Below, one piece after another: positions 1,669 through 52,003 of a DNA stretch of 64,000 nucleotides. The notes beneath the pieces were generated by a model, which made no database searches, was not told the DNA's origin, and was given only the letters and a program-made list of their open reading frames with translations. The stretch is from the NCBI GenBank assembly GCA_004555405.1, contig SFIE01000003.1:1049-65048 (forward strand). The letters run 5' to 3'. The translations under genes and the position numbers were made by a program. The DNA comes from Subdoligranulum sp. GTDB lineage: Bacteria > Bacillota > Clostridia > Oscillospirales > Ruminococcaceae. The first letter of the stretch is position 1, and each line of letters opens with the position of its first letter.

Positions 1669-3123
1669 GTGGTGAAAACACTGATCAAATACGAGCTTGT
1701 CATCAACCGGGCGCTGCGTTCGGCGCTGATGTATGATACCGCCGAGCAGCAGATCAACGAGTTTATCAGCTTTCTGGGCAGGCAGATCGGGTCTGACCGC
1801 ATTTATATTTTTGAGGACAACGAGAAAACCCGCACCACCTCCAACACCTATGAGTGGTGCGCCGACGGCGTAAGCACCGAGATGGGCAATCTGAAGGCCA
1901 TTCCCATGCAGACCATTCGCTGGTGGTATGATCGGTTCGATGAGGGCAAAAGCGTGATCCTGCACGATGCTGAAACCATCCGGCAGGAGCATCCCCACAC
2001 CTATGCGCTTCTGAAGGCGCAGAATGTTCACAGCCTTGTGGTGTGCCCTTTCCGCTACAACAGCGAGATCCGCGGTTTTTTTGGGGTAGATAATCCCCCC
2101 GAAAGCGATTTTCTGGGGCTGACCACTTTTTTGGATATGATCGCCACGGTGATCATATCGTTTTACAAAATTCGCAACACGCAAATCAGATCTGCCCGCG
2201 CGGCACGGTTCAGCGGGTATTCGGCGCTGGCAAAAATTTATATTTCCATGCACTATATCAATGTGCAGACTCACTCTTTTCATATTATAAAGGCCAGCGA
2301 TAGCGTGCAGCGAATGGTTGGTAAAATAGCCTCGTTGGATAGCCGTTACACCGCCGAGGAGGATTTCTGCGCACACGCCGATGCGGTGCTGCACGCCTTC
2401 TGCCGGGAAGACCATTTGGAGGATCAGCTGAAATTTGTGGATCTCCGCACGCTGGAGCAGCGCCTGCAGGGGCAGGATTCCATTGTGAATGTGTTTTACA
2501 GCAAGCTCTCCGGCTGGTGCCGTGACCGCTTTATCGCCGTGGACTATGATGCCCACGGGCACCTGCACCATGTGCTGTACTGCGTGGAGTGCATCGAGCA
2601 GCAGAAAGAGCGCGAGGACAGGCTGCTGAACATGGCCCGCAAAGACCAGATGACCGGCCTTTACAATCGCGGCAGCGGCGAAAAGCTGATCGAAACTGCC
2701 CTGCAAAACAAGGTGAGCGGTCTTTTGTGCCTGATCGACTGCGACAAATTCAAATCCATCAACGACACCTTTGGCCACGCGGTGGGCGATGCCGTGATTG
2801 TTGCCATTGCCGCTACCCTGCAAAATTCCTGCCGCAGCGATGACATTGTAATGCGCCTTGGCGGCGATGAATTCGCCATTTTTGTGCCCACCGTTACCGA
2901 AAAGGCCAGCGCTGAATCCTTTTTTGCGCGCCTGTTTGACAACATCAAAAGCATTCAGATCCCCGAGCTTGGCCCAAGGCCGATCATAGTCAGCCTTGGC
3001 GCGTGCCTGTATGACGGCAAGGAGACCGCAAACTTTGATATGCTGTATCGCCGGGCCGACCATGCCATGTACCAAAGCAAAAAGCAGCCGGGCCTTACTG
3101 CCACCATTTACGGCGAGATATAA
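1669..3123 (+). CDS. Diguanylate cyclase, GAF-like N-terminal sensor plus GGDEF domain
   Basis: 484 aa, GTG start after GAAGGGAGGGG. Active-site RLGGDEFAIF is present, with an RSDD (RxxD I-site) five residues upstream. The N-terminal 160 aa are GAF-like. Confidence 0.85.
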   Translation: MVKTLIKYELVINRALRSALMYDTAEQQINEFISFLGRQIGSDRIYIFEDNEKTRTTSNTYEWCADGVSTEMGNLKAIPMQTIRWWYDRFDEGKSVILHDAETIRQEHPHTYALLKAQNVHSLVVCPFRYNSEIRGFFGVDNPPESDFLGLTTFLDMIATVIISFYKIRNTQIRSARAARFSGYSALAKIYISMHYINVQTHSFHIIKASDSVQRMVGKIASLDSRYTAEEDFCAHADAVLHAFCREDHLEDQLKFVDLRTLEQRLQGQDSIVNVFYSKLSGWCRDRFIAVDYDAHGHLHHVLYCVECIEQQKEREDRLLNMARKDQMTGLYNRGSGEKLIETALQNKVSGLLCLIDCDKFKSINDTFGHAVGDAVIVAIAATLQNSCRSDDIVMRLGGDEFAIFVPTVTEKASAESFFARLFDNIKSIQIPELGPRPIIVSLGACLYDGKETANFDMLYRRADHAMYQSKKQPGLTATIYGEI

Positions 3124-3132
3124 AAACGCAAA

Positions 3133-3182
3133 CAGCCCTTTTGCCGCCTGTTTTCAGGAAAGCAAAAGGGCTGTGTTTCTTA
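3133..3182 (+). terminator. Rho-independent terminator after the GGDEF gene
   Basis: 12-bp perfect stem CAGCCCTTTTGC / GCAAAAGGGCTG followed by TGTTTCTT. Confidence 0.75.
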
Positions 3183-3197
3183 TGCCAGGCCCAAAGC

Positions 3198-3245
3198 AAA
3201 ACCCCCGGCCCTTCGGTGCTTGCACGCCGAAAAGCCGGGGGTTTT
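3198..3245. terminator. Second, bidirectional hairpin between convergent genes
   Basis: AAAACCCCCGGC / GCCGGGGGTTTT 12-bp arms flanked by A-run and T-run. It can serve the minus-strand gene ending at 3306. Confidence 0.6.
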
Positions 3246-3305: not shown

Positions 3306-4439
3306 TTACAGCAGATAATCGCCCAGGCTGCCGTTTACCAGCTCGTCATAGCCGGGAATGCCGCTTACCACGATCTGCTTATCCTCAGAGCTGTTGTTGT
3401 TGAACGCATTGATGTATGCGTTGATACCGGCCAGATGGCGGCCAACACGCAGCTCGATGGGGAAATCGCCGCTGCTGTAATCCACATACAGCAGGCCCAG
3501 ATCATAAGCGATCACATAGCAGGGGTCCTTGCCGGTTTTCACCAGAGTTTCGTCGGTGTAGCCGCGCAGACGGCCCTGGCTGGGATTGCCGGTTTCCATC
3601 AGCAGAGCGTAGGTGTTGGTGAAATCGCCCAGCTCGCGGTGGGTCAGGCCGTGCAGGGTAGTGGGAGAAGGCTCCAGGCTCATGGAAATGCCTTCCAACT
3701 GCAGATCCAGCACGCCCTCGGCGGCAATGGTAGCAGCGCGCTCGTGTGCAACGGTAGCGTTGTTCACAGCGTATTCGGGGCTGGACTCGTGCAGGTCGAT
3801 CTCCATGTCAATTTCCAGAGTGTTGATCATGTTGGTCACGGCGTAAGCCACCTGCTCGGACAGCGTGCCGTCCTCAACGCCGGGGTAGCAGCGGTTCAGG
3901 TTGCGGGTTTCCGAGCCGGACAGAGTCTGGCCGGAGGACTTGTGGGTGTAAATGTCGGGGTCGGGCCACTGGTCAATGGGGTTGGTGGCACGAGAGCCGT
4001 ACTGGAAGGTGCGGGTCTCACCGTTTTTGTTGGTGAAGTGCATATACTGGGGCGAACCATCCAGCGGGTCGTTATGGGTCAGGGCCGAGTTGTTGATGTT
4101 GGGGATCACATAAATGGTGCCCACATCCACATTGGCGTTTTCCTCCAGCAGAATGCCTGCCATGTGGCCCGAGGGCTCGTTGGCATGGGTGCTGCCCAGC
4201 ACTACCAGAGAGCCGCCCTCTTTTTCGCCTTTCAGCACATACACATCCGAGTCGCCAATGGTGCCTTCCAGATTGGGGTTGTACTTGCTCAGCTTAAAGA
4301 CTTCGGTCACATTGGGGCCGGTAACGATATCTTCCTGGAAGTGGCGCTTGGTGTAAAAGCTCATGCCGGCAATGCTGCCCACAATGCCTGCAACTACCAG
4401 GATAGCGGCGGCGGACAGATAAGTTTTCTTCATATTCAT
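3306..4439 (-). CDS. Membrane-anchored M14-like zinc hydrolase of the succinylglutamate desuccinylase/aspartoacylase (AstE/AspA) type
   Basis: 377 aa with an N-terminal TM anchor (YLSAAAILVVAGIVGSIAGMSF). Zinc motif HxxE in GSTHANEPSG and a later IDLHES His are present. It is the last gene of the minus-strand string. Confidence 0.65.
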   Translation of the reverse strand: MNMKKTYLSAAAILVVAGIVGSIAGMSFYTKRHFQEDIVTGPNVTEVFKLSKYNPNLEGTIGDSDVYVLKGEKEGGSLVVLGSTHANEPSGHMAGILLEENANVDVGTIYVIPNINNSALTHNDPLDGSPQYMHFTNKNGETRTFQYGSRATNPIDQWPDPDIYTHKSSGQTLSGSETRNLNRCYPGVEDGTLSEQVAYAVTNMINTLEIDMEIDLHESSPEYAVNNATVAHERAATIAAEGVLDLQLEGISMSLEPSPTTLHGLTHRELGDFTNTYALLMETGNPSQGRLRGYTDETLVKTGKDPCYVIAYDLGLLYVDYSSGDFPIELRVGRHLAGINAYINAFNNNSSEDKQIVVSGIPGYDELVNGSLGDYLL

Positions 4440-4454
4440 TCTATTCGCCCTCCT

Positions 4455-4610
4455 TTACTTGATCAGCAAGATGCGCAGCAGCAGCGGGATCAGGATCATG
4501 GCTGCGTTGATCTGGTCAACAATGCGCTCTTCTTTGAAAATCAGATTGTACAGTGTGCTTACAAAAACCAGAAGGGCAATGGCCAGGTAAATGATGGTAA
4601 TGATACTCAT
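4455..4610 (-). CDS. Unlisted 51-aa hydrophobic micro-protein between the DctM-like permease and the M14-like hydrolase
   Basis: Own translation: MSIITIIYLAIALLVFVSTLYNLIFKEERIVDQINAAMILIPLLLRILLIK. A strong RBS AAGGAGGGG lies 8 nt upstream. It fills the gap exactly (permease stop at 4626, next ATG at 4439). It has two hydrophobic segments. Confidence 0.6.
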   Translation of the reverse strand: MSIITIIYLAIALLVFVSTLYNLIFKEERIVDQINAAMILIPLLLRILLIK

Positions 4611-4625
4611 AATATTGCCCCTCCT

Positions 4626-5912
4626 TTAAAACAGCCCGGCAATCAGCTTGGAATTTGCCAGGAAGAAGCTGGCGTAAACCAGCAGAATGATGATGGGCAC
4701 AATGCAGCGCTTCAGGATCTTGGTGTACTGCTTCACACCGGTCACCTGTGCGGCAAACAAGCCGGCCAGAGCCGTGGGAGGCATCATGTCGCCCACTGCG
4801 GCGATCAGGCTGATGGCAGCCAGAACCACCACCGAGTTGCCGCCCAGCAGGGAGGCATAAATGTAAGCGAAGGGCACGCCCAGCACCGAGCAGGCACCGT
4901 AGGAAGAAACAGCACCGAACAGGGGGATGCTGATAGCGCAGGCCAGCAGCCACAGAACGCTGGGCAGGCGCAGGCAGCTGATAACGATCAGGCCGCGAAC
5001 ACCGGTGGCAGTCATCACTTCGATGAACATACCAACGCCCATCAGAATGCCCATAACGGGAGCAGCGGTGCGGATAGCAGCGGGAACGGCAGTCAGCACA
5101 TTGATTTTCTTGCCGGTGAACAGACCAACAGCAGCGCTGATGAGGAACATCAGAGGCATACCGATGTCTTCGCCCAGCTTGAGGACCTTAAACACGATCA
5201 TGAGCACCACCAGAACCAGCAAAGGCAGGTAGATACGGGCGCCGAACTGCTTGCGAACGGCATCCTGCTTTTCCAAAGCGGGCTTCAGCTCTTCGTAGTT
5301 CATGTGGCGGGCCTGCTTGTAGCCGAGCAACAGCACAAACAGCACAGCCAGGGGGAAGGTGATCAGGGCCAGAGGGCCTTCAAAGCCCACATAGGGCACG
5401 TCGATACCGGCGCAGATGATCAGAGCGGCGGTGTTGACGGGGGGTGCGATCATGCCCAGCAGAGCGCCCATGGCAATGATGGAACCGGCGGTAACGGCAT
5501 CGATGCCCATCAGTGCCAGCACGGGTGCCATGATGGAACCGGCCGACAGAACAGCAGCGGTGGAAGAACCGGTGATCATGCCGGGGAACATGATGATGAG
5601 CATGATGAGGATTAAAAGAACAGCGGGGAAACGATGGAATTTCTCAATGATCAGGCTGCTCAAAGCATCCAGCGCACCGGATTCTTCGATAACTTTCATA
5701 AAGATCATGGCGCAGCCGATAGTCAGAATGGTATCCACATAACCGAACTCGCCTTCCACCATCATACGGATGGTTTCAGTGCCAAGGCCGCCCTCCAAAG
5801 CTCCGCAGAGCGCTGCTGCCAGCATGGAAACGCCGACAGGCAGCTTGAGAGCAAAGCAGCCGATCATGAAGACACCGACCATCACAAAAAAAGTGATCAC
5901 ATAAGGTGTCAT
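4626..5912 (-). CDS. DctM-like (TRAP large-subunit family) permease
   Basis: 428 aa with about 12 TM segments. Composition and length are typical of DctM-family proteins. No DctQ or DctP homologue is adjacent. Confidence 0.65.
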   Translation of the reverse strand: MTPYVITFFVMVGVFMIGCFALKLPVGVSMLAAALCGALEGGLGTETIRMMVEGEFGYVDTILTIGCAMIFMKVIEESGALDALSSLIIEKFHRFPAVLLILIMLIIMFPGMITGSSTAAVLSAGSIMAPVLALMGIDAVTAGSIIAMGALLGMIAPPVNTAALIICAGIDVPYVGFEGPLALITFPLAVLFVLLLGYKQARHMNYEELKPALEKQDAVRKQFGARIYLPLLVLVVLMIVFKVLKLGEDIGMPLMFLISAAVGLFTGKKINVLTAVPAAIRTAAPVMGILMGVGMFIEVMTATGVRGLIVISCLRLPSVLWLLACAISIPLFGAVSSYGACSVLGVPFAYIYASLLGGNSVVVLAAISLIAAVGDMMPPTALAGLFAAQVTGVKQYTKILKRCIVPIIILLVYASFFLANSKLIAGLF

Positions 5913-6002
5913 AATGATGTTCTCCTTATTCTGTTCACAGCGGCCCGGTCTGCGGGCCGCTGTGGGTATTCTCAGTTACAACAGAGTGAAACGGCTGTTG
6001 TC

Positions 6003-6653
6003 TTATTTGCCAAAAGCGGTCTGCAGAGCGCCCAGAGCGCCGGCAGTGTTCTCAACGTAGGTGGCGGGGGTGCTGTTCTTAGCCAGAATGCCGGACATCA
6101 GGCCGTCAGCATCGCCCTCAGAAACAACGATAGCAGCATCGCAGCCCTCGAAAGCGGGGTTGATAAAGCTGTCAGACAGGGTGCCGCGGCGAGCGGAACC
6201 ACCGGTGTGCATAGCCAGAATGGTAATGCCCTTATCCTTAGCAGCAGCGATCAGAGCGTCGGTACGAGCCAGCTCCTGATCAGCGTCGATACCGGCAGCG
6301 CCCAGACCCTTGGAGGAACCGCCCACAGCCAGGATCAGAGTCTTGCAGTCATCGGGCAGCTCGTCGCCGGTGATGTTCTTGTTCATGGTCACTTCAATGC
6401 CGGCCTTGCTGCACAGGGTGTTGGCAATGTCCACGTCAGCGCTCTGGCCAATGCTGGTCAGGATAGCGGGAGTCTGGCACATACCGGCGCTGATCTCAGT
6501 CAGATCCGTTGCAGCGGCAGAAGCAGCAGTGGAAGCTGTGGAAGCAGCGGGAGCAGAGGCAGCAGGGGCTGCGCTGGAAGCGCTGGAGCCGCCGCAGGCA
6601 ACCAGAGAGAGGGCCAGAGCACCGGCCATAGCGATAGTAGCAATTTTCTTCAT
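6003..6653 (-). CDS. Lipoprotein of unknown family (about 170-aa alpha/beta-looking mature domain)
   Basis: 216 aa with lipobox LSLVAC-GG, an Ala/Ser-rich linker, then LILAVGGSSKGLGAAG...ILAMHTGGSARRG. I see no resemblance to DctP, TAXI or TctC binding proteins. Confidence 0.6.
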   Translation of the reverse strand: MKKIATIAMAGALALSLVACGGSSASSAAPAASAPAASTASTAASAAATDLTEISAGMCQTPAILTSIGQSADVDIANTLCSKAGIEVTMNKNITGDELPDDCKTLILAVGGSSKGLGAAGIDADQELARTDALIAAAKDKGITILAMHTGGSARRGTLSDSFINPAFEGCDAAIVVSEGDADGLMSGILAKNSTPATYVENTAGALGALQTAFGK

Positions 6654-6784
6654 GATAAAAATCTCCTTTTCGTTGTTTTCTCAAAATACCATAATATCCG
6701 TTTTTGAAAAAAGGCCGCCCGCTCGGTGAGGATAGAACGGGCGGCCCCTGTTACAAAAGATTCTTTTTTACAGTGGTTTTTCGA

Positions 6785-8632
6785 TCAGTAGGCCAGAGCC
6801 TTGCCGTCACGGCGGGGGTCAGCGCCGCCGCGCAGGGTGCCGTCCTGAGCAATGGAGATGCCCTGAACGCCGCCAAAGAACAGCTGCCATTCGCCCTTAT
6901 CGGTCACTTCGTGGCCGCGCTCCTGCAGTTCTGCTGCAACCTCGGCAGTAATGGGGTTCACACCGCCGGACTCGTAGCAGATGTTTTCGGAAGCGTTGTC
7001 ATAGATACGGGCGCAGTCGATGGCATCCTGAATGTCCATATCATAGTCGATCATGCGCTCGATCACCTGTGCGATGGTGGGGAAGATACGGGTTGCTCCG
7101 GGGCTGCCGATGGTCATGTAGGGAGAGCCGTCGGGGTACAGAACGATGGAGGGGCTCATGCTGGACAGGGGGCGCTTGCCGCCTTCTGCGCAGTTCACGC
7201 TCTCGGGATCAGCCGAGAAGTCGTCCATTTCGTCGTTCATAATAAAGCCGTAGCCGGGCACGCCCACCTTAGAGCCAAAGCCATAGTTGATGGTCTTGGT
7301 GCAGGCAACCATGTTGCCCCACTGGTCAACCACAGAGAAGCTGGTGGTGGCGTAATGCTCGAGTTCTTCGGGCTCAACAGCCACATAGCTGCCGCTCTTT
7401 TCGGTGATCTCGCTGTAGCGCTCGGCAGCGTATTCCTTGCTGGTCAGCTGAGCCAGAGGCACTTCGGCAAAATCGGTATCGGCCATGTACTGAGCACGGT
7501 CAGCAAAGGCGATCTTGAATGCTTCGGAGAAGCGGTGTACATACTCGGCGCTGTTCACACCGATGGTGTCCATATCGTCGTAGTTTTCCAGAATGTTCAG
7601 GATCTCTACCAGATGGGTGCCGCCGGAGGATGCCGGGGGCAGAGAGTAGATGGTGTAGTCCTTATAGTGGCCCACCACAGGCTCGCGAACCTTGACTTCG
7701 TAGTTGGCCAGATCTTCCATGGTCATGTTGCCGCCCCAGTCTGCAACGGCATCCACCATAGCCTGTGCCATGTCGCCGGTGTAGAAGGCGTCCTTGCCGC
7801 CGTCAGCGATCAGCTGCAGGGTCTTGGCCAGATCGGGGTTGGTGATCACATCGCCCACTTCATAGGGCAGGCCAGCCTCGTTCAGGTAAATGTTGCTCAG
7901 GGTCTCGTTGGCAGCCAGGCCGCTGTATTCGCTTTCCAGCTCTTCCTTGAAGGTAACGCCCACCACAAAGCCGTTGTTGGCAGTGTCGATAGCGGGCTGG
8001 AAGATCTGCTGGCGGGTAACAGCATCCGAGCCGTAGTGCTCCAGCAGATACTCAAAGCCGGCCACTTCGCCGGGCACAGCCACCGACAAACCGCCGATGG
8101 AGCTCATGGTGCCCAGGTTGTTGGTGCCATCCAGGCTGAACTGCTTCATTTCGCCGTTCTCGTCCAGCCACATCTGGGCGTTGGCAGCAGCAGGAGCAGT
8201 TTCACGGAAGTCGATCACGCTTACCTTGTCTTCGTCGGCGCTGTAGATGGTCATGAAGCCGCCGCCGCCCAGGCCCGAGAAGTAGGGCTCGGCCACACCC
8301 AGGGTGTAGGCCACAGCTGCAGCTGCATCAAAGGCGTTGCCGCCCTCTTTCAGAATGTCCAGGCCGGCCTTGCTGGCGTACCAGTTGCAGGAAGCCACTG
8401 CGCCGGTTTTGCCGGTGGCATCGCGCTCATCGCGCTTTTTCTCGAAGTTTTCATCATAGGGCAGCCAGACTTCGTCCTCAGAAGCCTCGGCGCCGGAGGC
8501 TGCTTCGCTGGGAGCGGCGCTGCTGGCCACTGCGCTGGAAGCGGCAGTGCTGCTGCAGGCAGTCAGAGCGGCAGCCAAGCCGAGTGCGATCGCGCTCTTG
8601 GCGATCGAACGGTTAGAGCTTGTCTTTCTCAT
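6785..8632 (-). CDS. ggt: Gamma-glutamyltransferase-family lipoprotein (GGT/CapD-type), copy 1
   Basis: 615 aa when started at MRKTSSNRS (ATG 8632, RBS AAGGAGG). Lipobox LTAC-SS. Autoprocessing nucleophile context HYATTSFSVVD. C-terminal GGADPRRDGKALAY matches copy 2. Confidence 0.85.
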   Translation of the reverse strand: MRKTSSNRSIAKSAIALGLAAALTACSSTAASSAVASSAAPSEAASGAEASEDEVWLPYDENFEKKRDERDATGKTGAVASCNWYASKAGLDILKEGGNAFDAAAAVAYTLGVAEPYFSGLGGGGFMTIYSADEDKVSVIDFRETAPAAANAQMWLDENGEMKQFSLDGTNNLGTMSSIGGLSVAVPGEVAGFEYLLEHYGSDAVTRQQIFQPAIDTANNGFVVGVTFKEELESEYSGLAANETLSNIYLNEAGLPYEVGDVITNPDLAKTLQLIADGGKDAFYTGDMAQAMVDAVADWGGNMTMEDLANYEVKVREPVVGHYKDYTIYSLPPASSGGTHLVEILNILENYDDMDTIGVNSAEYVHRFSEAFKIAFADRAQYMADTDFAEVPLAQLTSKEYAAERYSEITEKSGSYVAVEPEELEHYATTSFSVVDQWGNMVACTKTINYGFGSKVGVPGYGFIMNDEMDDFSADPESVNCAEGGKRPLSSMSPSIVLYPDGSPYMTIGSPGATRIFPTIAQVIERMIDYDMDIQDAIDCARIYDNASENICYESGGVNPITAEVAAELQERGHEVTDKGEWQLFFGGVQGISIAQDGTLRGGADPRRDGKALAY

Positions 8633-8762
8633 TTTTTCCTCCTTAATTTTGTCGGTGCGGCAAATGCGCGCCGCACCGCTTTCAGGATCTCCTTCTTCAG
8701 AACCTTTTGTACATTGCAAAACGGCAGGAGCAATCATTCTCCCACCTTTGCGGTATGTGTAA

Positions 8763-8791
8763 ATTATATGAAAATTCTCTGAAATTTTCTA
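8763..8791 (-). promoter_or_regulatory. Candidate sigma-A promoter of ggt copy 1 (TAGAAA-17-TATAAT on the minus strand)
   Basis: Hexamers read directly. This gives a leader of about 124 nt containing a 9-bp GC hairpin (8653-8678). Confidence 0.4.
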
Positions 8792-8795
8792 TTTG

Positions 8796-8827
8796 TTCTC
8801 ATATTTTTCTCAGAATAAATATGAGAA
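8796..8827. promoter_or_regulatory. Perfect 11-bp inverted repeat TTCTCATATTT-N10-AAATATGAGAA just upstream of the -35 of ggt copy 1
   Basis: Read directly. One half-site recurs at the equivalent position upstream of ggt copy 2 (11105-11115). Confidence 0.5.
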
Positions 8828-9065
8828 ATATAAAGTTTGGCCCCTTTTGATCATTTCAAAACTTAATTAAATAAAGCCTTTCTTTGTGCATAACAGCCAA
8901 ATATTAAAAGAATAGTGCAGCATATTGCACTGTTAAAACATTTTTAATGCAAAAATTTCATTAAATTATTCTAAAATTTCATCAGTCAAAAAATCAAATC
9001 TCTTTGTACAAAATGTACATAAGTCCCCTGTTATTTTGGTAAATGTGCCCTTTCCACCGGTTTTT

Positions 9066-9106
9066 GCTGCAAACAAAGGGCGCAGTGCCGCCCGGCACTG
9101 CGCCCT
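9066..9106 (-). terminator. Rho-independent terminator after ggt copy 2
   Basis: 13-bp perfect stem AGGGCGCAGTGCC / GGCACTGCGCCCT, followed on the minus strand by TTTGTTTGC. Confidence 0.7.
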
Positions 9107-9142
9107 GTATTTCCGCTTTTTGTTTGGCTGCCTTACAAAAGA

Positions 9143-10951
9143 TCAGTAAGCCAGTGCCTTGCCGTCACGACGGGGATCAGCGCCGCCGTCCAGCGTGCCG
9201 TCCTCTGCATAGCGCACAGCGTTCACCGAGCCGAAGGCGCGGTTAAAGTCATCGCTGGCGTTCATGGTCCAGCCCTTAGCCTCCATCTCAGAGATGGTTT
9301 CCTCCGAGAAGCGGCCCTCGTAGTCCAGCGTGGTGTCACGGAAGCCCTTGATACGGGGTGCATCGATGGCTTCCTGCATGGTCATGCCATGGTCGATCAG
9401 GTTGGAGCAGAGCTGAGAAACGGTGGCAATGATGGTGGTGCCGCCGGGAGAGCCCAGAGCTGCCACGGGCTTGCCGTCCTTTTCGATCACGGTGGGGCTC
9501 ATGCTGGACAGAGGAGTCTTGCCGCCTGCGATGGAGTTGGGGTGGCCTGCGCCCACATTGAAGTCGCCCATTTCGTTGTTCATCACAAAGCCGTAGCCAT
9601 CCACAGCCACAGAAGCGCCGAAGTAGCCGTTTACCGTGCAGGTAACTGCCACCATGTTGCCGTCCTTATCCGCCACAGAGTAGTGGGTGGTGTCCTGATG
9701 CTCAAACATCCAGGGATCGTCGGGCAGAACATTGGTCATAGCGGTGTCCATGTCGATCTTGTCGGCCAGCTTCTTGGCGTAATCCTTGTTCAGCAGGCCC
9801 TCGATAGGCACATCCACAAACTTGGTGTCGCCCATGTACTCGCCGCGGTCGGCATAAGCCATGGCAAAGGCAGAGCCGATCAGGTGCTGTGCCTCGGCAG
9901 AATCCTGCTCCATGCTGGGCAGATCAAAGTTTTCGAGAATGTTCAGGATCTCCAGCACGATGGTGCCGCCCGAGGAGGGAGAGGGAGAAGAATAGATGTC
10001 ATAGCCGCGGTAGGTGCCGTGTACGGGCTCCATGACCTCAACTTCGTAGTTGGCCAGATCTTCCTTGGTCATCAGTCCGCCGTACTTCTGGGTGGCTGCC
10101 ACCATGGCATCGGCGATCTCGCCCTTGTAGAAGACTTCTGCGCCCTGATCGGCGATCAGCTTCAGAGTTTTGGCGTAATCGGGGTTTTTGAAGGTGTCGC
10201 CGATATTGTAGGGCATCAGCATACCGTCAACATCCTTCAGGAACAGCTTGCCGCTCTCGGAGTAGAGCATCAGCTTGTCGTAGCTGTTGTTCATATCGTT
10301 GGCCAGCGTGGGGGTAACGGTAAAGCCCTTTTCGGCCAGCTCAATGATGGGAGCCATGATCTGCTCACGGGTCATGGTGCCGTAGTTGTCCAGTGCATAC
10401 AGCAGGCCTGCCACATAGCCGGGCACGCCCACGGCCTTGCCGCCGTTCATGTTCTGGCCGCCGATCACATTGCCCTCGGAGTCCACCTGCCACATATCGG
10501 GGGTGGCAGCAGCGGGGGCGCACTCACGGAAGTTGACAAACTCCACCTCGCCGGTTTCGGCCGAGCGCAGAGTCATAAAGCCGCCGCCGCCCAAACCGGT
10601 GGCGTTGGGCTCCACAAGGCCCAGCGTAAAGCCAACGGCCACAGCAGCATCCACAGCGTTGCCGCCCTGCTCAATGATGGTGCGGCCGATCTTGGAGGCT
10701 TCGTACTTGCCCGAGGAAACCACGCCGTTTTCGCCCGCAGCGTCACGGCCGGTGGTGGTGAGGGTGCCATCCTCGTTCCACAGCACAAAATCATCCAACG
10801 AGGTGTAGCCGGCCTCGGCAGAATCGCCGGTTTCGGCCGGGGCGGAGGCTGCAGACTGCGAAGAAGCAGCGCCCTGAGCGCCGCAGCCCGTCAGCATGGC
10901 TGCTGCCAAACCCAGCGCAGCCACGCGCTTGGTGACTTGCATTTTTTTCAT
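9143..10951 (-). CDS. ggt: Gamma-glutamyltransferase-family lipoprotein (GGT/CapD-type), copy 2
   Basis: 602 aa when started at MKKMQVTK (ATG 10951, RBS AAAGGAGGAAA). Lipobox LTGC-GA. Nucleophile context HQDTTHYSVAD. Paralogue of copy 1 along the full length. Confidence 0.85.
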   Translation of the reverse strand: MKKMQVTKRVAALGLAAAMLTGCGAQGAASSQSAASAPAETGDSAEAGYTSLDDFVLWNEDGTLTTTGRDAAGENGVVSSGKYEASKIGRTIIEQGGNAVDAAVAVGFTLGLVEPNATGLGGGGFMTLRSAETGEVEFVNFRECAPAAATPDMWQVDSEGNVIGGQNMNGGKAVGVPGYVAGLLYALDNYGTMTREQIMAPIIELAEKGFTVTPTLANDMNNSYDKLMLYSESGKLFLKDVDGMLMPYNIGDTFKNPDYAKTLKLIADQGAEVFYKGEIADAMVAATQKYGGLMTKEDLANYEVEVMEPVHGTYRGYDIYSSPSPSSGGTIVLEILNILENFDLPSMEQDSAEAQHLIGSAFAMAYADRGEYMGDTKFVDVPIEGLLNKDYAKKLADKIDMDTAMTNVLPDDPWMFEHQDTTHYSVADKDGNMVAVTCTVNGYFGASVAVDGYGFVMNNEMGDFNVGAGHPNSIAGGKTPLSSMSPTVIEKDGKPVAALGSPGGTTIIATVSQLCSNLIDHGMTMQEAIDAPRIKGFRDTTLDYEGRFSEETISEMEAKGWTMNASDDFNRAFGSVNAVRYAEDGTLDGGADPRRDGKALAY

Positions 10952-11070
10952 TGTATTTCCTCCTTTGTTTTGGGGGTCTTTACCCGTGCGCCGCACGGGA
11001 ATGCCGAACTTTCATAACCCGGAGAAAAGCGGAACTCCATTTGTGAAAATTCTGTGTACATTACTCTCAA

Positions 11071-11099
11071 ATTATAATAACTGTTTATTGCCTGTGTAA
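11071..11099 (-). promoter_or_regulatory. Candidate sigma-A promoter of ggt copy 2 (TTACAC-17-TATAAT on the minus strand)
   Basis: Hexamers read directly. The TTCTCATATTT half-site lies 5 nt upstream of the -35. Confidence 0.45.
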
Positions 11100-11237
11100 A
11101 GTTTTTCTCATATTTCTCTCAAAAAATGCCTAAAAATATAAAGTCCCCGGCCGGTTTTCCGGCCAAGGGCTTTACATTATAAAGCGTTTGCATTGTAATA
11201 TTGCACAAGGAATTATTTATCCTCTTGGCTAATATGC

Positions 11238-11858
11238 TTAATTTCCCGGTGTGCGGCGAAACAGCTGGCGCGGGCGGCCCACCTTGCCGTAAATGCTCAC
11301 CATCTCCACCTTTTTATTCTGGATCAGATACTGCAAATAGCGATACACCGTTTGGTAAGCAAGGCCGCTGCTTTTGGCCACCTCGTTCACCGTCATGTAA
11401 TCTTCGCCCTCCTTCAGCGAATCCAGCACCAGCTGCAGCGTGGCTTCGCTCAGGCCCTTGCTCAGCGGCTGGGCAGGCTGCTCGCGTTCCAGCAGGCGCA
11501 GGTGCAGCTTGATGCGGCTGATGATATCCGGGGCCTTGATGGGCTTCAGGGCAAAATCGCTGGCACCGGCCTGCAAAAACTGATCGGCCACCTCCTGGCT
11601 TTCATCGATGGTAAACACAATGATGGGCACCGTGCGGGAAAGCTTGCGCAGCAGGCGCACACCCTCCACCCCGTTGATGCCCGGCATATGATAATCGATC
11701 AGCACAATGTCCGGGCGGTGCAGCCGAAACTGCTCGATGCCCTTTTCCACTGTGGGTGCGCAGCAGGCTTCCCAGCCCTGAAAGCGAAACAATTCGCCCA
11801 AGGCAAAGCGGATATTTTCCTCATCGTCAATGGAAAGAATCGTTATTTTGCGTTCCAT
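11238..11858 (-). CDS. Response regulator, REC plus C-terminal HTH (CitB/DcuR-like architecture)
   Basis: 206 aa. Receiver domain with IVLIDYHMPGINGVEG (phospho-Asp context). The C-terminal MTVNEVAKSSGLAYQTVYRYLQYL HTH is typical of the CitB/DcuR class. Its start overlaps the kinase gene by 32 nt. Confidence 0.8.
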   Translation of the reverse strand: MERKITILSIDDEENIRFALGELFRFQGWEACCAPTVEKGIEQFRLHRPDIVLIDYHMPGINGVEGVRLLRKLSRTVPIIVFTIDESQEVADQFLQAGASDFALKPIKAPDIISRIKLHLRLLEREQPAQPLSKGLSEATLQLVLDSLKEGEDYMTVNEVAKSSGLAYQTVYRYLQYLIQNKKVEMVSIYGKVGRPRQLFRRTPGN

Positions 11859-13272
11859 AGTCCAGTACCTCCGGTAAAAATATCAAAAAGCGCGTTCCCT
11901 TGCCCGGGCAGCTTTCGGAAACCACCGAGCCGTCCATGGCTTCTACGGTCTTTTTCACAAACGCAAGGCCCAGCCCGCTGGAGCCCTTGCCCGAAATGCC
12001 CTGTTCCCACATGGCGGCCTGCTCCTGCTCGGTCATGCCGCGGCCATTGTCCGTCACCGAAAAAGTAACATAGGGCACGCCCTCCACCAATCTGGCCCGC
12101 ACCCGCAGCCAGATCTCCAGCGGGCGGCTGCTCACGGCGGCCTGTGCGGCATTGCGGATCAGGTTGACCAGCACCCGCGTGAACAGAATGCTGTTCACAC
12201 TCACGCAGGTTTCCGGCACTTCGTTGTCAATGTGTACGCAGGCGGCGTAGCTTTCCACCGACACCTGCGCCAGCGCCATATCCAGAAGGCGCGCGGTTTC
12301 GGTGCGGCTGCAGCGGTTTTCGTACAGAATTTCCGAGATCATGCCGCTCATGCGGTCCATCTGGTTTTCAATGCGGCTCAGGTACTCCAGCTCTTTTTCG
12401 TTGCCGTTTCTTTCGCTTTGCATTTTCAAAACGCCCACCAGCGTTTGGGTGCTGGTAAGGGGCGATTTCAGATCATGCACCAGATATTTTATTTCCTGAT
12501 AGGTGCGGTTTTTCATTTCCAGCAGCATAGCGCGGCCCTGGGCGGCCTGTGTTTTTTCGCGCTCCTTTGCCAGGCGCTGAAAGTTGTTTTCGTCCCGCAG
12601 CTGCAGCAGAATGATAACCGCAAACAGCGCCACCACCAGAATGCCCACCGCGCCCACGGCGTTCAAAAGCGGGTTGGCCTCCAGCACTTCGGCGATCAGC
12701 TTGATATCCATGCTGGTTTCGCCGCGGCCCACCGGCAGCGAGCTCATCAGCGGCATGATATCCAAAAACTGAAACGCCACTGTAAAAATCAGCAGCATCA
12801 GTGTTTTTTTGGTGCGGGAGATATACTGATAGTCCATGCGGCGAAACAGCGCCACGCACAAACTGAGCAAAAGCGCGGGCAGACCAAAGTCATACCGGAT
12901 GCCGCTTACGATGTAGATTGCTTCGTATACCAGCGGCAGGATCAGCAGAATCATGCAGGCATTGGGCACCCAGCATTTGCGCCCGCGCCAGTAGATCTGC
13001 ACGGATTCCGCAATAAAATATGCGCCAATGTAGTGCGGGGCGGCGCGCAGGGCGTTGAGCATCACAAGGCGCAGCGCCGCGATCATCAGGTCGGTCTTTT
13101 CCTGATATTCCAGCGCCAGATACATATATTCCTGCACCCGGAAGCTTTGCACGGTAAACAGGATCGGCATCAGAAAGCTCAGCCCGATCAACGCCGCGCC
13201 GATGTGCATTTCTTTCTGGTCGGTTTTCTGGATCTCAAAATCCGAAATGTGAATTTCAGGCAGTTTCAACAA
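11827..13272 (-). CDS. Multi-TM sensor histidine kinase
   Basis: 481 aa with about 6 N-terminal TM segments. H-box YLVHDLKSPLTS, N-box LVNLIRNAAQA, G-boxes DNGRGM and GKGSSGLGLAF. The start is TTG (13272 or 13269), overlapping the upstream gene stop. Confidence 0.85.
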   Translation of the reverse strand: MLKLPEIHISDFEIQKTDQKEMHIGAALIGLSFLMPILFTVQSFRVQEYMYLALEYQEKTDLMIAALRLVMLNALRAAPHYIGAYFIAESVQIYWRGRKCWVPNACMILLILPLVYEAIYIVSGIRYDFGLPALLLSLCVALFRRMDYQYISRTKKTLMLLIFTVAFQFLDIMPLMSSLPVGRGETSMDIKLIAEVLEANPLLNAVGAVGILVVALFAVIILLQLRDENNFQRLAKEREKTQAAQGRAMLLEMKNRTYQEIKYLVHDLKSPLTSTQTLVGVLKMQSERNGNEKELEYLSRIENQMDRMSGMISEILYENRCSRTETARLLDMALAQVSVESYAACVHIDNEVPETCVSVNSILFTRVLVNLIRNAAQAAVSSRPLEIWLRVRARLVEGVPYVTFSVTDNGRGMTEQEQAAMWEQGISGKGSSGLGLAFVKKTVEAMDGSVVSESCPGKGTRFLIFLPEVLDYGTQNNDSFH

Positions 13273-14345
13273 GTTTCTCCTTTTTGGTCACGTGGCTTTT
13301 TGCAGGCAAACAGCAAAAGCACCGCCGCCCCCAGCACACCGGCCGCCGCCAGCGCCCGGGGGTATTCCGTGCAGAAATACACGGCGCTTTGCCCCGGGGG
13401 CAAAATGATCTCGGGGTCAAACGGAAGGCTGTATTGCGCCGCCAGCTGTTTGATGTTTAAAATATGCAGCACCGGCAGGCCGCGGGCATTGTAATATTGC
13501 AGAAGGCCATCGTCCGGGCGCACCGCCGTTACGGTGTAGGGGGCCAGCACGCCGGGCTTCATGGTGTCTTCCTGCATGCCAATGGTGGTAATGTTGCCTC
13601 CCACGCCCACAAAGCAGCTGATGGGCCCCTGTGCGGCATACAGCGCCTCGCGGGCTTTCAGATTGGCCGCAAAGTCTTTTTCCCGCATGATCTCGGCCAC
13701 GCCGTAGCTTGCAATGCGCGCCAGTGCGGCCTCACGGTCCTCTTCAAACATTTCTCCGCCGCAGTCGTAATCGCCGCCGGGGGTGATGAGCGCCGGGGGC
13801 GTTTGCAGCTTGCCCTCCAGATACAGGCGGCACACCATGTCCGGAAAAGTAAATTCCGGCTGGTTGGCGCCAAAGGTGCTTGCCCCCAGCGAAGCGATAT
13901 AGATCACTTTTACCTGCATGGCCTCGCAGGCGGCCAGCAGGGCCAGATTCATGGTGGGGAACGAGCCGGAAAAGCCTGCGCCGATGGTATCCCCCGTTTC
14001 CACCCCGGCCTCGGTGAGCATTTGCACCAGCAGCGCCGCCATATCGGCATTGGCCGTGGTGCGCTTGGCTTCCTCGGAGCCAAGGCTTGTGGTGATGGGG
14101 GTATACTCATCGCCGATCATGCCGGTCTGATGGGTGTCATACGGGGTGATGGCCAGCCCGGCTTCCAGCTTATAGCGCTTCACATCGTCCATCCAGCCCT
14201 GCAGCGTTTGCGCGGCCTGCAGCTTTACGGCATAGTCCTCGGCCGGTCGTTTTTGGCCCCGGGCCAGCGTGAGCAGCAGGCAGGCTGCCAGCCACGCCAC
14301 AGCCAGCACCAGCGCCCCTGTGCGGCGCTTTTGCAAAGCATTCAT
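13266..14345 (-). CDS. Bitopic (N- and C-terminal TM) protein, candidate third component of the poly-gamma-glutamate system (not a PgsA/CapA metallophosphatase)
   Basis: 359 aa from ATG 14345 (RBS AAAGGGGG). An alternative GTG at 14366 overlaps the pgsC stop. TM helices sit at both ends with a large central domain. It lies immediately after pgsB-pgsC. I recall a TIGRFAM-type family named poly-gamma-glutamate system protein with this gene position, but cannot verify that here. Confidence 0.5.
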   Translation of the reverse strand: MNALQKRRTGALVLAVAWLAACLLLTLARGQKRPAEDYAVKLQAAQTLQGWMDDVKRYKLEAGLAITPYDTHQTGMIGDEYTPITTSLGSEEAKRTTANADMAALLVQMLTEAGVETGDTIGAGFSGSFPTMNLALLAACEAMQVKVIYIASLGASTFGANQPEFTFPDMVCRLYLEGKLQTPPALITPGGDYDCGGEMFEEDREAALARIASYGVAEIMREKDFAANLKAREALYAAQGPISCFVGVGGNITTIGMQEDTMKPGVLAPYTVTAVRPDDGLLQYYNARGLPVLHILNIKQLAAQYSLPFDPEIILPPGQSAVYFCTEYPRALAAAGVLGAAVLLLFACKKPRDQKGETC

Positions 14346-14362
14346 ATGCAAAAAGCCCCCTT

Positions 14363-14788
14363 TCACACACCGGGCAGCTTTTGGCCGATGGCCAGCAGCA
14401 CCAGCGCTGTCAGCAGGGTGGCGGCGGCAATGGCCAAAAGGGCATCGCGAAAGCCCTGACGATCGATCTCACGCGCCAGAATGCCGGGCATCAGCACACC
14501 GATCACACTGAAGGGCAAAAGCCTGCAGGCGCTCAGTGCCCAGCTTAACAAAAAGGTGAGCAGGATCAGAAAGGCAAATCGGCGGCGGCCGTATAAGATC
14601 AGCCAGCGGGAGGCAAGGCGGCACAAAAGCACCGCTGCAGCGGCCACCGCCAGCGTAACGGCAATGCGCCCCGGGCTGTGCAGCGCCAGCACCAGATATC
14701 CCGGCACGATCAAGCCCGCCGAAAGGCCGGTGAGCTCGGTAAAGATCATGCTGACTATCACGCCCAAAAGAATGATCTGGTTATACAT
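14363..14788 (-). CDS. pgsC: Poly-gamma-glutamate biosynthesis membrane protein PgsC/CapC
   Basis: 141 aa from MYNQIILLG (RBS GAGGAGGGAAG). It aligns by eye with B. subtilis PgsC: GLIVPGYLVL vs GLVVPGYLAL, ILYGRRRFAFL vs ILYGRRKFAAM, VLMPGILAREIDRQG vs VIVPGLIANTIQRQG. Confidence 0.85.
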   Translation of the reverse strand: MYNQIILLGVIVSMIFTELTGLSAGLIVPGYLVLALHSPGRIAVTLAVAAAAVLLCRLASRWLILYGRRRFAFLILLTFLLSWALSACRLLPFSVIGVLMPGILAREIDRQGFRDALLAIAAATLLTALVLLAIGQKLPGV

Positions 14789-15908
14789 ATTCGCTTCCCT
14801 CCTCACGCGCCCGGGCGATCAGCTCGCGCCCTGCGCCGTACAGATTCCCCACTGCCAGCAGCACCGTGCCCCTGGGCGTTTGCCCCAGGGGCATCTGGGC
14901 GGCACGCGCAAAGCTGCGCACGCAGCACCCGGGCAGCAGGCGATGCAGCCGGGCCTTCATATAGTTTTTGTGCGAGCCCGCCAGCCAGATCTCCGCCGGG
15001 GCCAGGCGGGTACACACCGTAAGCATATCCCGGGTGCGGCTGCCGCGGTCGGCACGGTTGCACACGATCAGCACCAGACGCCCGGCCTTGGCCCCCAGCT
15101 TTGCCTGCAGCTGCTGCCACACGATATAAGTAGAATCCGGGTCGTTCACCGAAACAGCGTTCACAAATATGCCGTTTCCGGCGGTGTACAGGGCCAGCGC
15201 GTAGGGGTCACGCTTATAGTGCGCCATGCCCTGCAGGGCGGTTTGGCGCGCAACGCCCAGCTGCTGGCACACGGCCAGTGCCAGTGCGATATTCTCGGCA
15301 AAATCAAAATCCGGCTCGCTGCCGTTTGGGCGGGCCAGCGTGAATCGGCTGTGCATTTTTTCGGCATAGGCCTGCAGGCGCGGGGCCATGGCCTCATCGG
15401 CGGTAAACAAAATGCCGTTTTGGGGCACTGTATTGCAAAGGGTATCCGCAATTTCAGGCAAAGTATCCCCCATCACATCCGCATGGTCGTGCCGCACATT
15501 GGTGATCACGCCCACATCTGCCTGCAGAATGCGGTGCTGGGCGCAGCGCTGGTATTCCGGCTGCAGCGCCATGCATTCGATCACCAGCACCTGGGCATTT
15601 TCGGCGGCAGCACGGCGCAGTATGCCCACCTGCTCTTTGATATTGGCCTTGCCCCGGCGGCGCAGCGGTTCCTCGACACCGGCCACATTGATGGTCATGG
15701 GGTCGGTGCCGGTGGTTTTGCAGAACACACGCACCCCGCCGGCCCGCAGCCCGGCCTCGATCAGGCGGCACACGGTGGATTTTCCCCGCGTGCCGTTTAC
15801 ATGCACCACATGGCGCAGTGCGGCGCGGCTGCGGGCAGCGGCGCGGCTTTCCAGCCAAAGCCCGGCCGCCCAAAACATTCCGGCCAGCAAAATAACGGTT
15901 TTCAGCAT
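14781..15908 (-). CDS. pgsB: Poly-gamma-glutamate synthase PgsB/CapB (Mur-ligase-fold amide ligase)
   Basis: 375 aa from MLKTVILLAG. It shares VNGTRGKSTV (P-loop), KTTGTD, ECMALQPEYQ and ITNVRHDHADVMGDTLPEIA with B. subtilis PgsB motifs INGIRGKSTV, KTTGTD, ECMAVNPDYQ and VNVLEDHMDVMGPTLDEIA. Confidence 0.88.
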   Translation of the reverse strand: MLKTVILLAGMFWAAGLWLESRAAARSRAALRHVVHVNGTRGKSTVCRLIEAGLRAGGVRVFCKTTGTDPMTINVAGVEEPLRRRGKANIKEQVGILRRAAAENAQVLVIECMALQPEYQRCAQHRILQADVGVITNVRHDHADVMGDTLPEIADTLCNTVPQNGILFTADEAMAPRLQAYAEKMHSRFTLARPNGSEPDFDFAENIALALAVCQQLGVARQTALQGMAHYKRDPYALALYTAGNGIFVNAVSVNDPDSTYIVWQQLQAKLGAKAGRLVLIVCNRADRGSRTRDMLTVCTRLAPAEIWLAGSHKNYMKARLHRLLPGCCVRSFARAAQMPLGQTPRGTVLLAVGNLYGAGRELIARAREEGSEYV

Positions 15909-25260: not shown

Positions 25261-25361
25261 CCGGGCCGCTTTTGCGGCGCGGTGATGCTTTGCCGCCCGA
25301 ATCGGGGCAATGCCCCGCCATCCAGACAAGGCAGCGATGTACTGCCAAAAAGGAGAAAAAC

Positions 25362-36531: not shown

Positions 36532-36567
36532 GTTTTTCTCCTATGCAGGTTTTTGTGCGCAGGGCTT

Positions 36568-51999: not shown

Positions 52000-52003
52000 G
52001 GTT

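Follow-up and report, generated by a model that had tools for sequence, protein, structure and literature searches.

The operons for poly-γ-glutamate (PGA) synthesis of Bacillus subtilis, Bacillus anthracis, Bacillus megaterium, Staphylococcus epidermidis, and Fusobacterium nucleatum have all been reported to be homologous to pgsBCA, and the polymer is known mainly from Bacillus, S. epidermidis, Fusobacterium, and haloarchaea, always together with PgsBCA-type genes (PMC3815933). Among the enzymes that act on PGA, the γ-glutamyltransferase (GGT) of B. subtilis breaks the polymer down in stationary phase, and GGTs that lack the lid loop have an open cleft and accept polymeric PGA (PMC8062742); PghP has a carboxypeptidase-A-like zinc fold able to cut PGA (PMC4497714). 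A cassette with PgsB and PgsC and without PgsA is already curated as the NCBIfam family TIGR04332, a curated annotation for which we found no characterized member in the searched literature. Here we analyze a locus of 11 genes in a 64,000-nt stretch of contig SFIE01000003.1 from Subdoligranulum sp. (from here on, the window, within which the positions of the locus are numbered). The locus contains such a cassette together with a two-component system, two GGT lipoproteins, and a putative uptake and trimming module, and we hold with moderate confidence that it specifies a PgsA-independent PGA system with its own turnover machinery and regulator. What is new here is a shared promoter box, which stands before both GGT promoters and, in a degenerate copy, at pgsB. 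A preliminary description of this DNA regarded the gene combination as an operon type not described before; we would narrow this claim, as the PgsB-PgsC-TIGR04332 core is already curated and it is only the extended architecture that is undescribed in the searched literature.

The 11 genes are co-directional on the minus strand, span positions 3306-15908, and are all real, as proposed: when genes were called independently on ten long metagenome contigs from the species of the window, the same 11 genes were obtained, with identical boundaries. The sequence of the permease is indexed, in identical form, in 138 blocks of the metagenome collection, and a second very abundant gut species (~80% identical; 518 collection blocks) carries a ten-gene version of the locus in another genomic context. 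In exact look-ups, the gene for the TIGR04332 protein (T4332) was matched in its ATG-start form, as were the other genes, and its GTG-start version was without a match. We note that the closest genome bins are labeled inconsistently (Prevotella, Gemmiger, Alistipes, and Copromonas).

The first three genes are predicted to specify the synthetase. The identification of PgsB and PgsC is borne out, as both proteins score above the NCBI curated cut-offs. PgsB exceeds the equivalog cut-off of TIGR04012 (222.7 bits) by 93 bits, with FolC, at 40.8 bits, as the next model, and hence scores as a PgsB equivalog and not as a Mur-ligase-fold enzyme unrelated to PGA. A transmembrane (TM) helix was located by a TM scan at residues 1-19 of PgsB, and a sequence search returned no solved-structure relative of this protein. 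The bitopic third partner of the preliminary description is a real gene, and its family already has a name: TIGR04332, annotated in NCBIfam as "poly-gamma-glutamate system protein" and uncharacterized, comprises 1,102 clusters at 50% identity (E ≤ 1e-10) among 1.84 billion representatives. The T4332 protein has an α/β domain, predicted to be extracytoplasmic, between N-terminal and C-terminal TM helices, and its AlphaFold2 (AF2) model is confident (pLDDT 88.5, pTM 0.88). A fold search of this model against the PDB gave a best E value of 5e-3 and TM scores of ≤0.23, such that no fold was assigned, and a sequence search against solved structures gave only noise. We considered whether T4332 might be a disguised PgsA and rejected this, because the AF2 model is confident and is without a match in the PDB, including any match to a metallophosphatase-like fold. 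Further, no model for PgsA/CapA (PGA_cap) matched any of the 11 locus proteins, to which this search was limited, and the earlier statement that the locus has no PgsA and no PgsE stands within that scope. T4332 occupies the place of PgsA in the cassette.

It may be argued that such a synthetase produces short γ-glutamyl oligomers or a glutamylated envelope molecule, which the downstream genes remodel or salvage. PgsA and PgsE, which are required in Bacillus, are not at the locus, the T4332 fold has no known relative, PgsC is barely above its cut-off, and no polymer has been reported from these taxa in the searched literature, all of which would suit a short product. The score of PgsB, 93 bits above its equivalog cut-off with FolC at only 41 bits, does not, and the GGTs of the locus belong to the lid-loop-less class that is associated with polymeric substrates. 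We consider a short product distinctly improbable and retain the reading in which a PGA polymer would be made.

Domain fusions in other genomes place T4332 among the other components of the locus. T4332 is fused to an AstE_AspA catalytic domain in P0113, P0361, P0364, and P0402 (three 50%-identity clusters plus P0113), to PgsC/CapC in P0497, and to a HisKA/HATPase kinase in P0378. The kinase fusion may be a frameshift artifact because the T4332 and kinase genes overlap by 4 nt. Overall, the fusions indicate that T4332 is physically tied to the synthetase and that the M14-type enzyme is tied to the pathway. In many relatives, a second, shorter AstE-like gene (~25% identical to the M14 protein of the window) directly follows T4332 (L016, L020, L022, L030, L031, and L042-L059); in several relatives it is fused to the C-terminal end of T4332, and it has no counterpart in the lineage of the window. 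Some Lachnospiraceae carry two tandem T4332 paralogues (L074, L078, L079, and L088).

We monitored the linkage of these genes in two sets of loci, which include several loci of the same species. The first set was anchored on T4332 (TIGR04332 alignment, GTDB with one genome per species; 80 loci, flanked by up to 10 kb per side, in which six-frame open reading frames were searched with the window proteins), and the second was anchored on the DUF6305 lipoprotein (DUF6305 alignment, metagenome contigs; 80 loci). Flanks of at least 8 kb on each side are available for 28 and 12 loci, respectively. The genes pgsB, pgsC, and T4332 are contiguous in 75 of the 80 T4332-anchored loci, the other five being short contigs that end before pgsB, and in most Clostridia loci the kinase gene comes after T4332. 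The full module of DUF6305, permease, and M14 genes lies within 10 kb in 22 of the 28 long-flank loci, a GGT gene is near T4332 in 21 of them, and a kinase or regulator gene in 16-17; the cassette has between 0 and 4 GGT genes beside it. Seen from DUF6305, the permease gene follows in 69 of 80 loci (the contigs of the remaining 11 end too early), and the genes for the 51-aa and M14 proteins follow the permease gene wherever the contig extends that far. All 12 long-flank loci of this set have the permease, M14, and GGT genes, and nine have pgsBC-T4332 within 10 kb.

The module lies downstream of the cassette in the window, upstream of it in, for example, L038, L045, L060, L062, L069, and L083, and in divergent or convergent orientation in L032-L035 and L080. 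This indicates that the linkage, which is found in Oscillospiraceae, Christensenellaceae, Fusibacter, Tissierella, Lutispora, Peptoniphilaceae, Lachnospiraceae, and Aminicenantes, survived rearrangement. Cultured carriers include Oscillibacter valericigenes An907, Pseudoflavonifractor phocaeensis An901, Dysosmobacter sp., Pygmaiobacter massiliensis, Yanshouia hominis, Fusibacter paucivorans, and Lutispora saccharofermentans. With regard to conservation of the 11-gene neighborhood, the gene set is linked across genomes, whereas its order and orientation differ between loci. Synteny of the GGT and transporter genes with pgsBC extends over many families, and the adjacency of synthesis and processing genes is not due to chance.

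Several loci show variations on this arrangement. A paralogous second pair of permease and M14 genes stands beside the main module in L032, L034, L035, L040, L060-L062, and L083 (27-31% and 36-41% identical, respectively, to the window proteins), which suggests substrate diversification. Cassette loci without the DUF6305 module have serpin neighbors, two in L074 and one in L084; an M28 peptidase gene lies directly upstream of pgsB in L074, and L084 encodes a 1176-aa amidohydrolase-domain protein (these neighbors are at 11160-14013 and 5586-7292 in L074 and at 5785-7137 in L084). Contigs with a Clostridia-type locus also occur in bins named Prevotella sp. CAG:279 (L011), Alistipes onderdonkii (L019), and Gemmiger sp. 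(L012); these names probably reflect binning contamination or mislabeling.

The second line of evidence is the promoter box. A 16-nt box, GAGARAAATATGAGAA, occurs in two exact copies in the window, one upstream of each GGT gene (Table 1), and at up to three mismatches the window contains 6 matches compared with 0.21 expected. In 160 related loci, we detected 84 sites at up to two mismatches, compared with 4.2 expected from composition-preserving block shuffles. When identical contexts were collapsed, 63 of 77 sites lay within 400 nt upstream of pgsB (20), GGT (33), or DUF6305 (9) genes, a zone that makes up 7.5% of the sequence. A layout consisting of the box, 4 nt, TTGAC or TAGAC, ~17 nt, and TATAAT recurs from Lawsonibacter-like bins to Fusibacter, including loci of the pgsBC-less L142 type, and the relatives L011, L012, L071, and L094-L107 (~80% identical) have an inverted orthologous box, CAGATAAATATGAGAA, at 70-104 nt before pgsB. 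The consensus, GAGAnAAATAwGAGAA, contains two GAGA(A) half-sites at a distance of 11 bp, or one turn of the helix, a spacing appropriate for a tandem site of a response regulator. Further, of the 44 loci that encode a regulator orthologue, 35 have the box, compared with 3 of the 27 loci without such an orthologue (Fisher p = 1.4e-8, in a test that ignores phylogeny and same-species redundancy). The co-encoded regulator is therefore the probable binder of the box, and on the same grounds we infer that the synthesis, GGT, and uptake units form one regulon. Two-mismatch matches to the box also occur elsewhere in the window, at 25353-25368 (+), 36525-36540 (-), and 8626-8641 (-). The match at 8626 is the ribosome-binding site and start codon of GGT1, and the match at 25353, just after a cobalamin riboswitch, resembles a ribosome-binding site with an ATG; these extra matches are probably not operator sites.

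The linkage and the box also bear on the view that a general unit for scavenging γ-glutamyl peptides or glutathione, made up of the GGT, permease, and M14 genes, happens to lie beside pgsBC. Consistent with this view, a few DUF6305 loci are without pgsBC within 10 kb (L101, L133, and L142), and L142 contains the kinase, regulator, DUF6305, permease, 51-aa, M14, and GGT genes. Against it, the linkage persists through rearrangement from Oscillospiraceae to Aminicenantes, the same box precedes pgsB, GGT, and DUF6305 genes, and T4332 is found fused to an AstE-like domain. Fortuitous adjacency is already disfavored by these observations, and we regard it as very improbable.

The array was previously described as a single chain of genes with short spacers or overlaps. 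This description is appropriate for pgsB to the response regulator gene (gaps of -8, +17, -4, and -32 nt) and for DUF6305 to M14 (90, 15, and 15 nt), but not for the other three spacers, which measure 286 nt between the regulator and GGT2 genes, 510 nt between the GGT2 and GGT1 genes, and 131 nt between the GGT1 and DUF6305 genes. Each of the three contains a strong hairpin, namely -27.3 kcal/mol (z -6.4) after the regulator gene, -34.2 kcal/mol (z -5.9) after the GGT2 gene, and -28.5 kcal/mol (z -5.1), followed by U6, after the GGT1 gene, and two of them contain a promoter. The internal hairpins and the two near-consensus promoters imply three or four units and not one operon, and the single chain is not borne out. 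We conclude that the locus comprises three or four transcription units under one probable regulon, in which the DUF6305 unit may rely on read-through from the GGT1 promoter. The histidine kinase, according to a TM scan, has five TM helices in its first ~225 residues and no large outside domain. A search with Rfam over the locus revealed no riboswitch and one sub-threshold small RNA match (3133-3243), just past the end of the M14 gene.

Table 1. Positions of the genes and putative regulatory elements of the locus, numbered within the window.
Feature	Position	Strand	Evidence or remark
pgsB	14781-15908	-	TIGR04012 315.9 bits; Mur_ligase_M; N-terminal membrane anchor; GTRGKS P-loop
pgsC	14363-14788	-	TIGR04011 97.8 bits; PF14102 2e-25; polytopic membrane subunit
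T4332 (TIGR04332 protein gene)	13266-14345	-	349 bits vs cut-off 100
Histidine kinase	11827-13269	-	HisKA + HATPase_c
Response regulator	11238-11858	-	Receiver domain + IclR/DpiA-like helix-turn-helix
Hairpin after response regulator	11145-11168	-	Terminator candidate, weak T tail
Regulatory box GAGAGAAATATGAGAA, GGT2 promoter	11105-11120	-	4 nt upstream of -35
GGT2 promoter TTTACA-18-TATAAT	11100-11071	-	Near-consensus sigma-70-type
GGT2 lipoprotein	9143-10951	-	TIGR00066 526 bits, above cut-off
Intrinsic terminator after GGT2	9077-9106	-	13-bp stem, 10 GC pairs
Regulatory box GAGAAAAATATGAGAA, GGT1 promoter	8796-8811	-	4 nt upstream of -35
GGT1 promoter TAGAAA-17-TATAAT	8791-8763	-	Near-consensus sigma-70-type
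GGT1 lipoprotein	6785-8632	-	TIGR00066 507 bits, above cut-off
Hairpin + U6 run after GGT1	6707-6749	-	Terminator or attenuator before DUF6305 unit
DUF6305 lipoprotein	6003-6653	-	PF19823 157 bits; lipobox LVAC
DctM-like permease	4626-5912	-	PF06808 54 bits, full length
51-aa open reading frame	4455-4610	-	Two-TM hairpin, conserved in >40 loci
AstE/M14-like protein	3306-4439	-	PF24827 22.4 bits, cut-off 25
Inverted degenerate box TAGATAAATATGAAAA	16053-16068	+	Abuts -35 of predicted pgsB promoter
Predicted pgsB promoter TGGTCA-17-TATTAT	16052-16024	-	Sequence

The two lipoproteins described as GGT/CapD-type are indeed GGT-family lipoproteins, with lipobox LTAC and the catalytic Thr in TTSFSV in GGT1 and lipobox LTGC and the catalytic Thr in TTHYSV in GGT2, but they are not CapD-like. 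GGT1 matches the B. licheniformis GGT at 4e-103 and CapD at 4e-42, and GGT2 matches the E. coli GGT at 1e-122 and CapD at 4e-41. The small subunit of GGT1, which starts with Thr, aligns without gaps to the GGTs of B. subtilis and B. licheniformis through DF...KRPLSSM, the site of the lid loop, and GGT2 (44% identical to GGT1) has no indel at this position; the 12-residue lid loop, as seen in the E. coli GGT, is thus absent from both small subunits. By these sequence criteria, GGT1 and GGT2 are canonical, lid-loop-less enzymes like the PGA-degrading GGTs of Bacillus.

An alternative role for one or both GGTs would be capsule anchoring, in which they act like CapD of B. anthracis and attach PGA to peptidoglycan, the M14 enzyme sets chain length, and the permease module imports glutamate that feeds synthesis instead of being recovered from the polymer. 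CapD is itself a GGT-family enzyme that is encoded in the cap operon and anchors the capsule (PMC8062742), the presence of 0 to 4 GGT copies beside the cassette is as expected for paralogues of split roles, and in many relatives the synthesis genes include a short AstE-like gene, either as a separate gene among them or as part of a fusion. However, both GGTs are far closer to the hydrolytic GGTs of E. coli and Bacillus (1e-101 to 1e-122) than to CapD (~4e-41), and a GGT gene accompanies the DUF6305 module even where pgsBC is not found within 10 kb (L133 and L142); also to be set against this alternative, hydrolase and transpeptidase activities are not separable by sequence alone. We therefore consider anchoring unlikely and continue with the reading in which the GGTs would trim the polymer.

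The lipoprotein gene downstream of GGT1 had been listed as unknown; this is not borne out, as its product belongs to DUF6305, a named though uncharacterized family. It contains a flavodoxin-like α/β domain (AF2 domain pLDDT >90) with the invariant residues Ser-71, Lys-115, His-149, Arg-155, Arg-156, Asp-161, and Asp-183, and sequence and fold searches returned only weak structure matches to SGNH-esterase and ThiM-like flavodoxin folds. The invariant Ser, Lys, His, Arg-Arg, and Asp would fit an anion-binding or hydrolytic role, a Ser/His/Asp hydrolase being one reading that we considered, and the protein is a candidate partner of the permease, in binding or in processing. Some members of DUF6305 reach 290-390 aa, with very high scores (P0241, of 394 aa, and P0242-P0245); the length and the scores suggest a tandem duplication of the DUF6305 domain.

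The description of the permease as TRAP-like or DctM-like holds in part. Its match to PF06808 supports a relationship to DctM, whereas membership in the tripartite ATP-independent periplasmic (TRAP) transporters does not follow: the TRAP DctM model TIGR00786 gave 19.6 bits against a cut-off of 268, and no DctQ or DctP was detected at the locus, the 51-aa protein being without a family match and DUF6305 without DctP likeness in sequence and fold. The best PDB match of a permease profile was the TRAP DctMQ structure 9pym (E 0.45), and a sequence search returned no solved relative. "TRAP-like" is thus a loose term, which describes the three-part layout and not membership. We regard the permease as a distant DctM-like protein of the ion-transporter superfamily and, presumably, an importer of glutamate or γ-glutamyl compounds. 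The 51-aa micro-ORF proposed earlier is a real gene for a conserved two-TM protein with the motifs T.IY and IPL.LR.LMIK. It is found at >40 loci, where identity falls as low as ~40%; its gene invariably stands between those of the permease and the M14 protein, and the product is likely a small permease subunit. The 51-aa protein was also considered as an analogue of PgsE/CapE; this was rejected because its gene travels with the permease and M14 genes and not with pgsBC.

The last gene was described as encoding a membrane-anchored M14/AstE-like zinc hydrolase, and the family profile, the invariant residues, and an N-terminal TM helix (residues 8-26 in the TM scan) bear this out. A profile of 19 orthologues matched structures of the AstE family (2qj8, 3e-11; 3cdx, 1e-7; DoeB 6twm, 1e-7). 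The invariant zinc- and substrate-binding residues are His-85, Glu-88, Arg-179, Asn-180, Arg-183, His-217, Glu-218, and Glu-282, with the zinc ligands and the catalytic Glu among His-85, Glu-88, His-217, and Glu-282. Enzymes of the AstE/AspA family hydrolyze N-acyl-Glu, N-acyl-Asp, and related compounds. As the carboxyl-terminal residue of PGA is an N-(γ-glutamyl)-glutamate, a substrate of the type used by this family, the M14 protein is predicted, by analogy, to release C-terminal glutamate from γ-glutamyl chains and so to complement the N-terminal action of the GGTs.

In the mechanism that we propose, PgsB (as a cytoplasmic ATP-dependent ligase), PgsC, and the TIGR04332 protein would form a membrane synthetase that makes and extrudes the polymer. 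The kinase and the regulator, co-transcribed with the synthetase genes, would provide sensing: in response to a presumed signal at the kinase, the regulator would bind the box just upstream of the -35 element and thereby control the pgsB operon and the two GGT genes, as well as the DUF6305 operon in relatives. The polymer would be trimmed outside the cell, with glutamate removed from its amino end by the two GGT lipoproteins, which lack the lid loop, and from its carboxyl end by the anchored AstE/M14-like zinc enzyme. The products would be taken back in by the DUF6305 lipoprotein together with the DctM-like permease and the 51-aa protein. The make/sense/process/re-import circuit of the preliminary description is supported by synteny, fusions, and the shared box, and the shared promoter box together with the domain fusions ties the synthesis, sensing, and processing genes to one another; the roles in processing and re-import are those that we infer.

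Several observations weigh against this mechanism. The match of PgsC to TIGR04011 is marginal (cut-off 96.45, a 1.4-bit margin), the single M14 sequence falls below the gathering cut-off of PF24827, and the permease is only remotely related to characterized transporters. The roles given to T4332 and DUF6305 are guesses because these proteins are without structural relatives. The box copy at the pgsB promoter of the window is inverted and has three mismatches, for the DUF6305 unit of the window we found no box of its own, only a half-site, and the association between box and regulator is subject to the limits of the Fisher test noted above. To these must be added the three DUF6305 loci without pgsBC within 10 kb, and the finding that the searched literature, which mostly did not extend to subscription journals, contained nothing relevant on PGA in Oscillospiraceae relatives, on DUF6305, on TIGR04332, or on this locus.

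It is conceivable, though short of probable, that many anaerobic Clostridia, including very abundant species of the human gut, run an unrecognized extracellular glutamate-polymer economy in which the polymer serves as a regulated capsule and as a nitrogen and carbon bank, with a PgsA-independent synthetase built around the orphan fold of TIGR04332, its own two-component regulon and operator, exo-degradation from two ends, and a new tripartite importer. If so, gut Oscillospiraceae and other anaerobes would widely produce PGA as capsules or slime, with consequences for immune evasion, resistance to phages, binding of metals, and cross-feeding on glutamate. Further, functions would be assigned to TIGR04332, DUF6305, and the 51-aa protein, all three of them orphan families, and the importer would represent a new transporter architecture. 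The operator-regulator pair would be ready for testing, and the predicted attack from opposite ends by GGT and the AstE-like enzyme can be tested directly in vitro.

In the surrounding DNA, a GGDEF diguanylate cyclase gene (1669-3123, +) is convergent with the M14 gene. Its called length across strains of the same species is mostly 484 aa, with 272 aa in L001 (12790-13608) and 351 aa in L010 (12790-13845). A Fic/PhdYeFM toxin-antitoxin-like pair lies downstream of a LysR gene, at ~16.2-17.2 kb, in L001, L002, L004, L006, L008, and L009. At that position L003, L005, L007, and L010 lack it, and the pair is therefore a small strain-variable insertion. The cobalamin riboswitch mentioned above (RF00174; 25060-25269, +; 98 bits compared with a gathering threshold of 31.5) has no companion in the 64-kb window, where no other Rfam family passed its threshold and no tRNA genes were found. 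The G+C fraction, 0.54-0.58 over the initial 12 kb of the window, rises to 0.65-0.68 at 46001-52000.

When the locus is compared with known systems, the pgsBCAE, pgdS, and ggt genes of B. subtilis share with it orthologous PgsB and PgsC and an extracellular lid-loop-less GGT, which in B. subtilis can trim PGA from the amino end (PMC8062742). B. subtilis also displays the same make-then-eat logic, as PGA is consumed in stationary phase (PMC8062742; PMC3815933). The locus differs in having TIGR04332 in place of PgsA/PgsE, an AstE/M14-like ectoenzyme instead of the NlpC/P60 enzyme PgdS, and GGT genes and an uptake module that are physically linked to the synthesis genes; in place of ComPA, DegSU, or SwrA, it has a co-encoded two-component system with a putative box of its own. 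The capBCADE genes of B. anthracis resemble the locus in that a GGT-family gene stands beside the synthetase genes and in having dedicated regulation, whereas the GGTs of the locus are canonical, CapA and CapE are not present, and the transporter and M14 module is extra. Compared with the TRAP transporters (DctPQM), the locus has the same three kinds of component, namely a lipoprotein outside the cytoplasm, a DctM-like permease as the large part, and a small protein in the membrane, and a carboxylate-type substrate is expected; however, the large subunit fails the DctM model, the small protein has two TM helices compared with four in DctQ, and DUF6305 (~150 aa, flavodoxin-like) differs from DctP. 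The M14 protein shares the HxxE...H zinc site and Arg/Asn carboxylate-binding residues with AstE, AspA, DoeB, and PghP but, unlike them, is membrane-anchored, predicted to face outward, and ~100 residues longer, with a conserved insert at ~120-175, and it has no Pfam match to the PghP family. As for the PgsB-PgsC-TIGR04332 cassettes, the first three genes of the locus are a textbook member, and the definition of that family covers neither the linked two-component system and its box nor the GGTs or the DUF6305 module.

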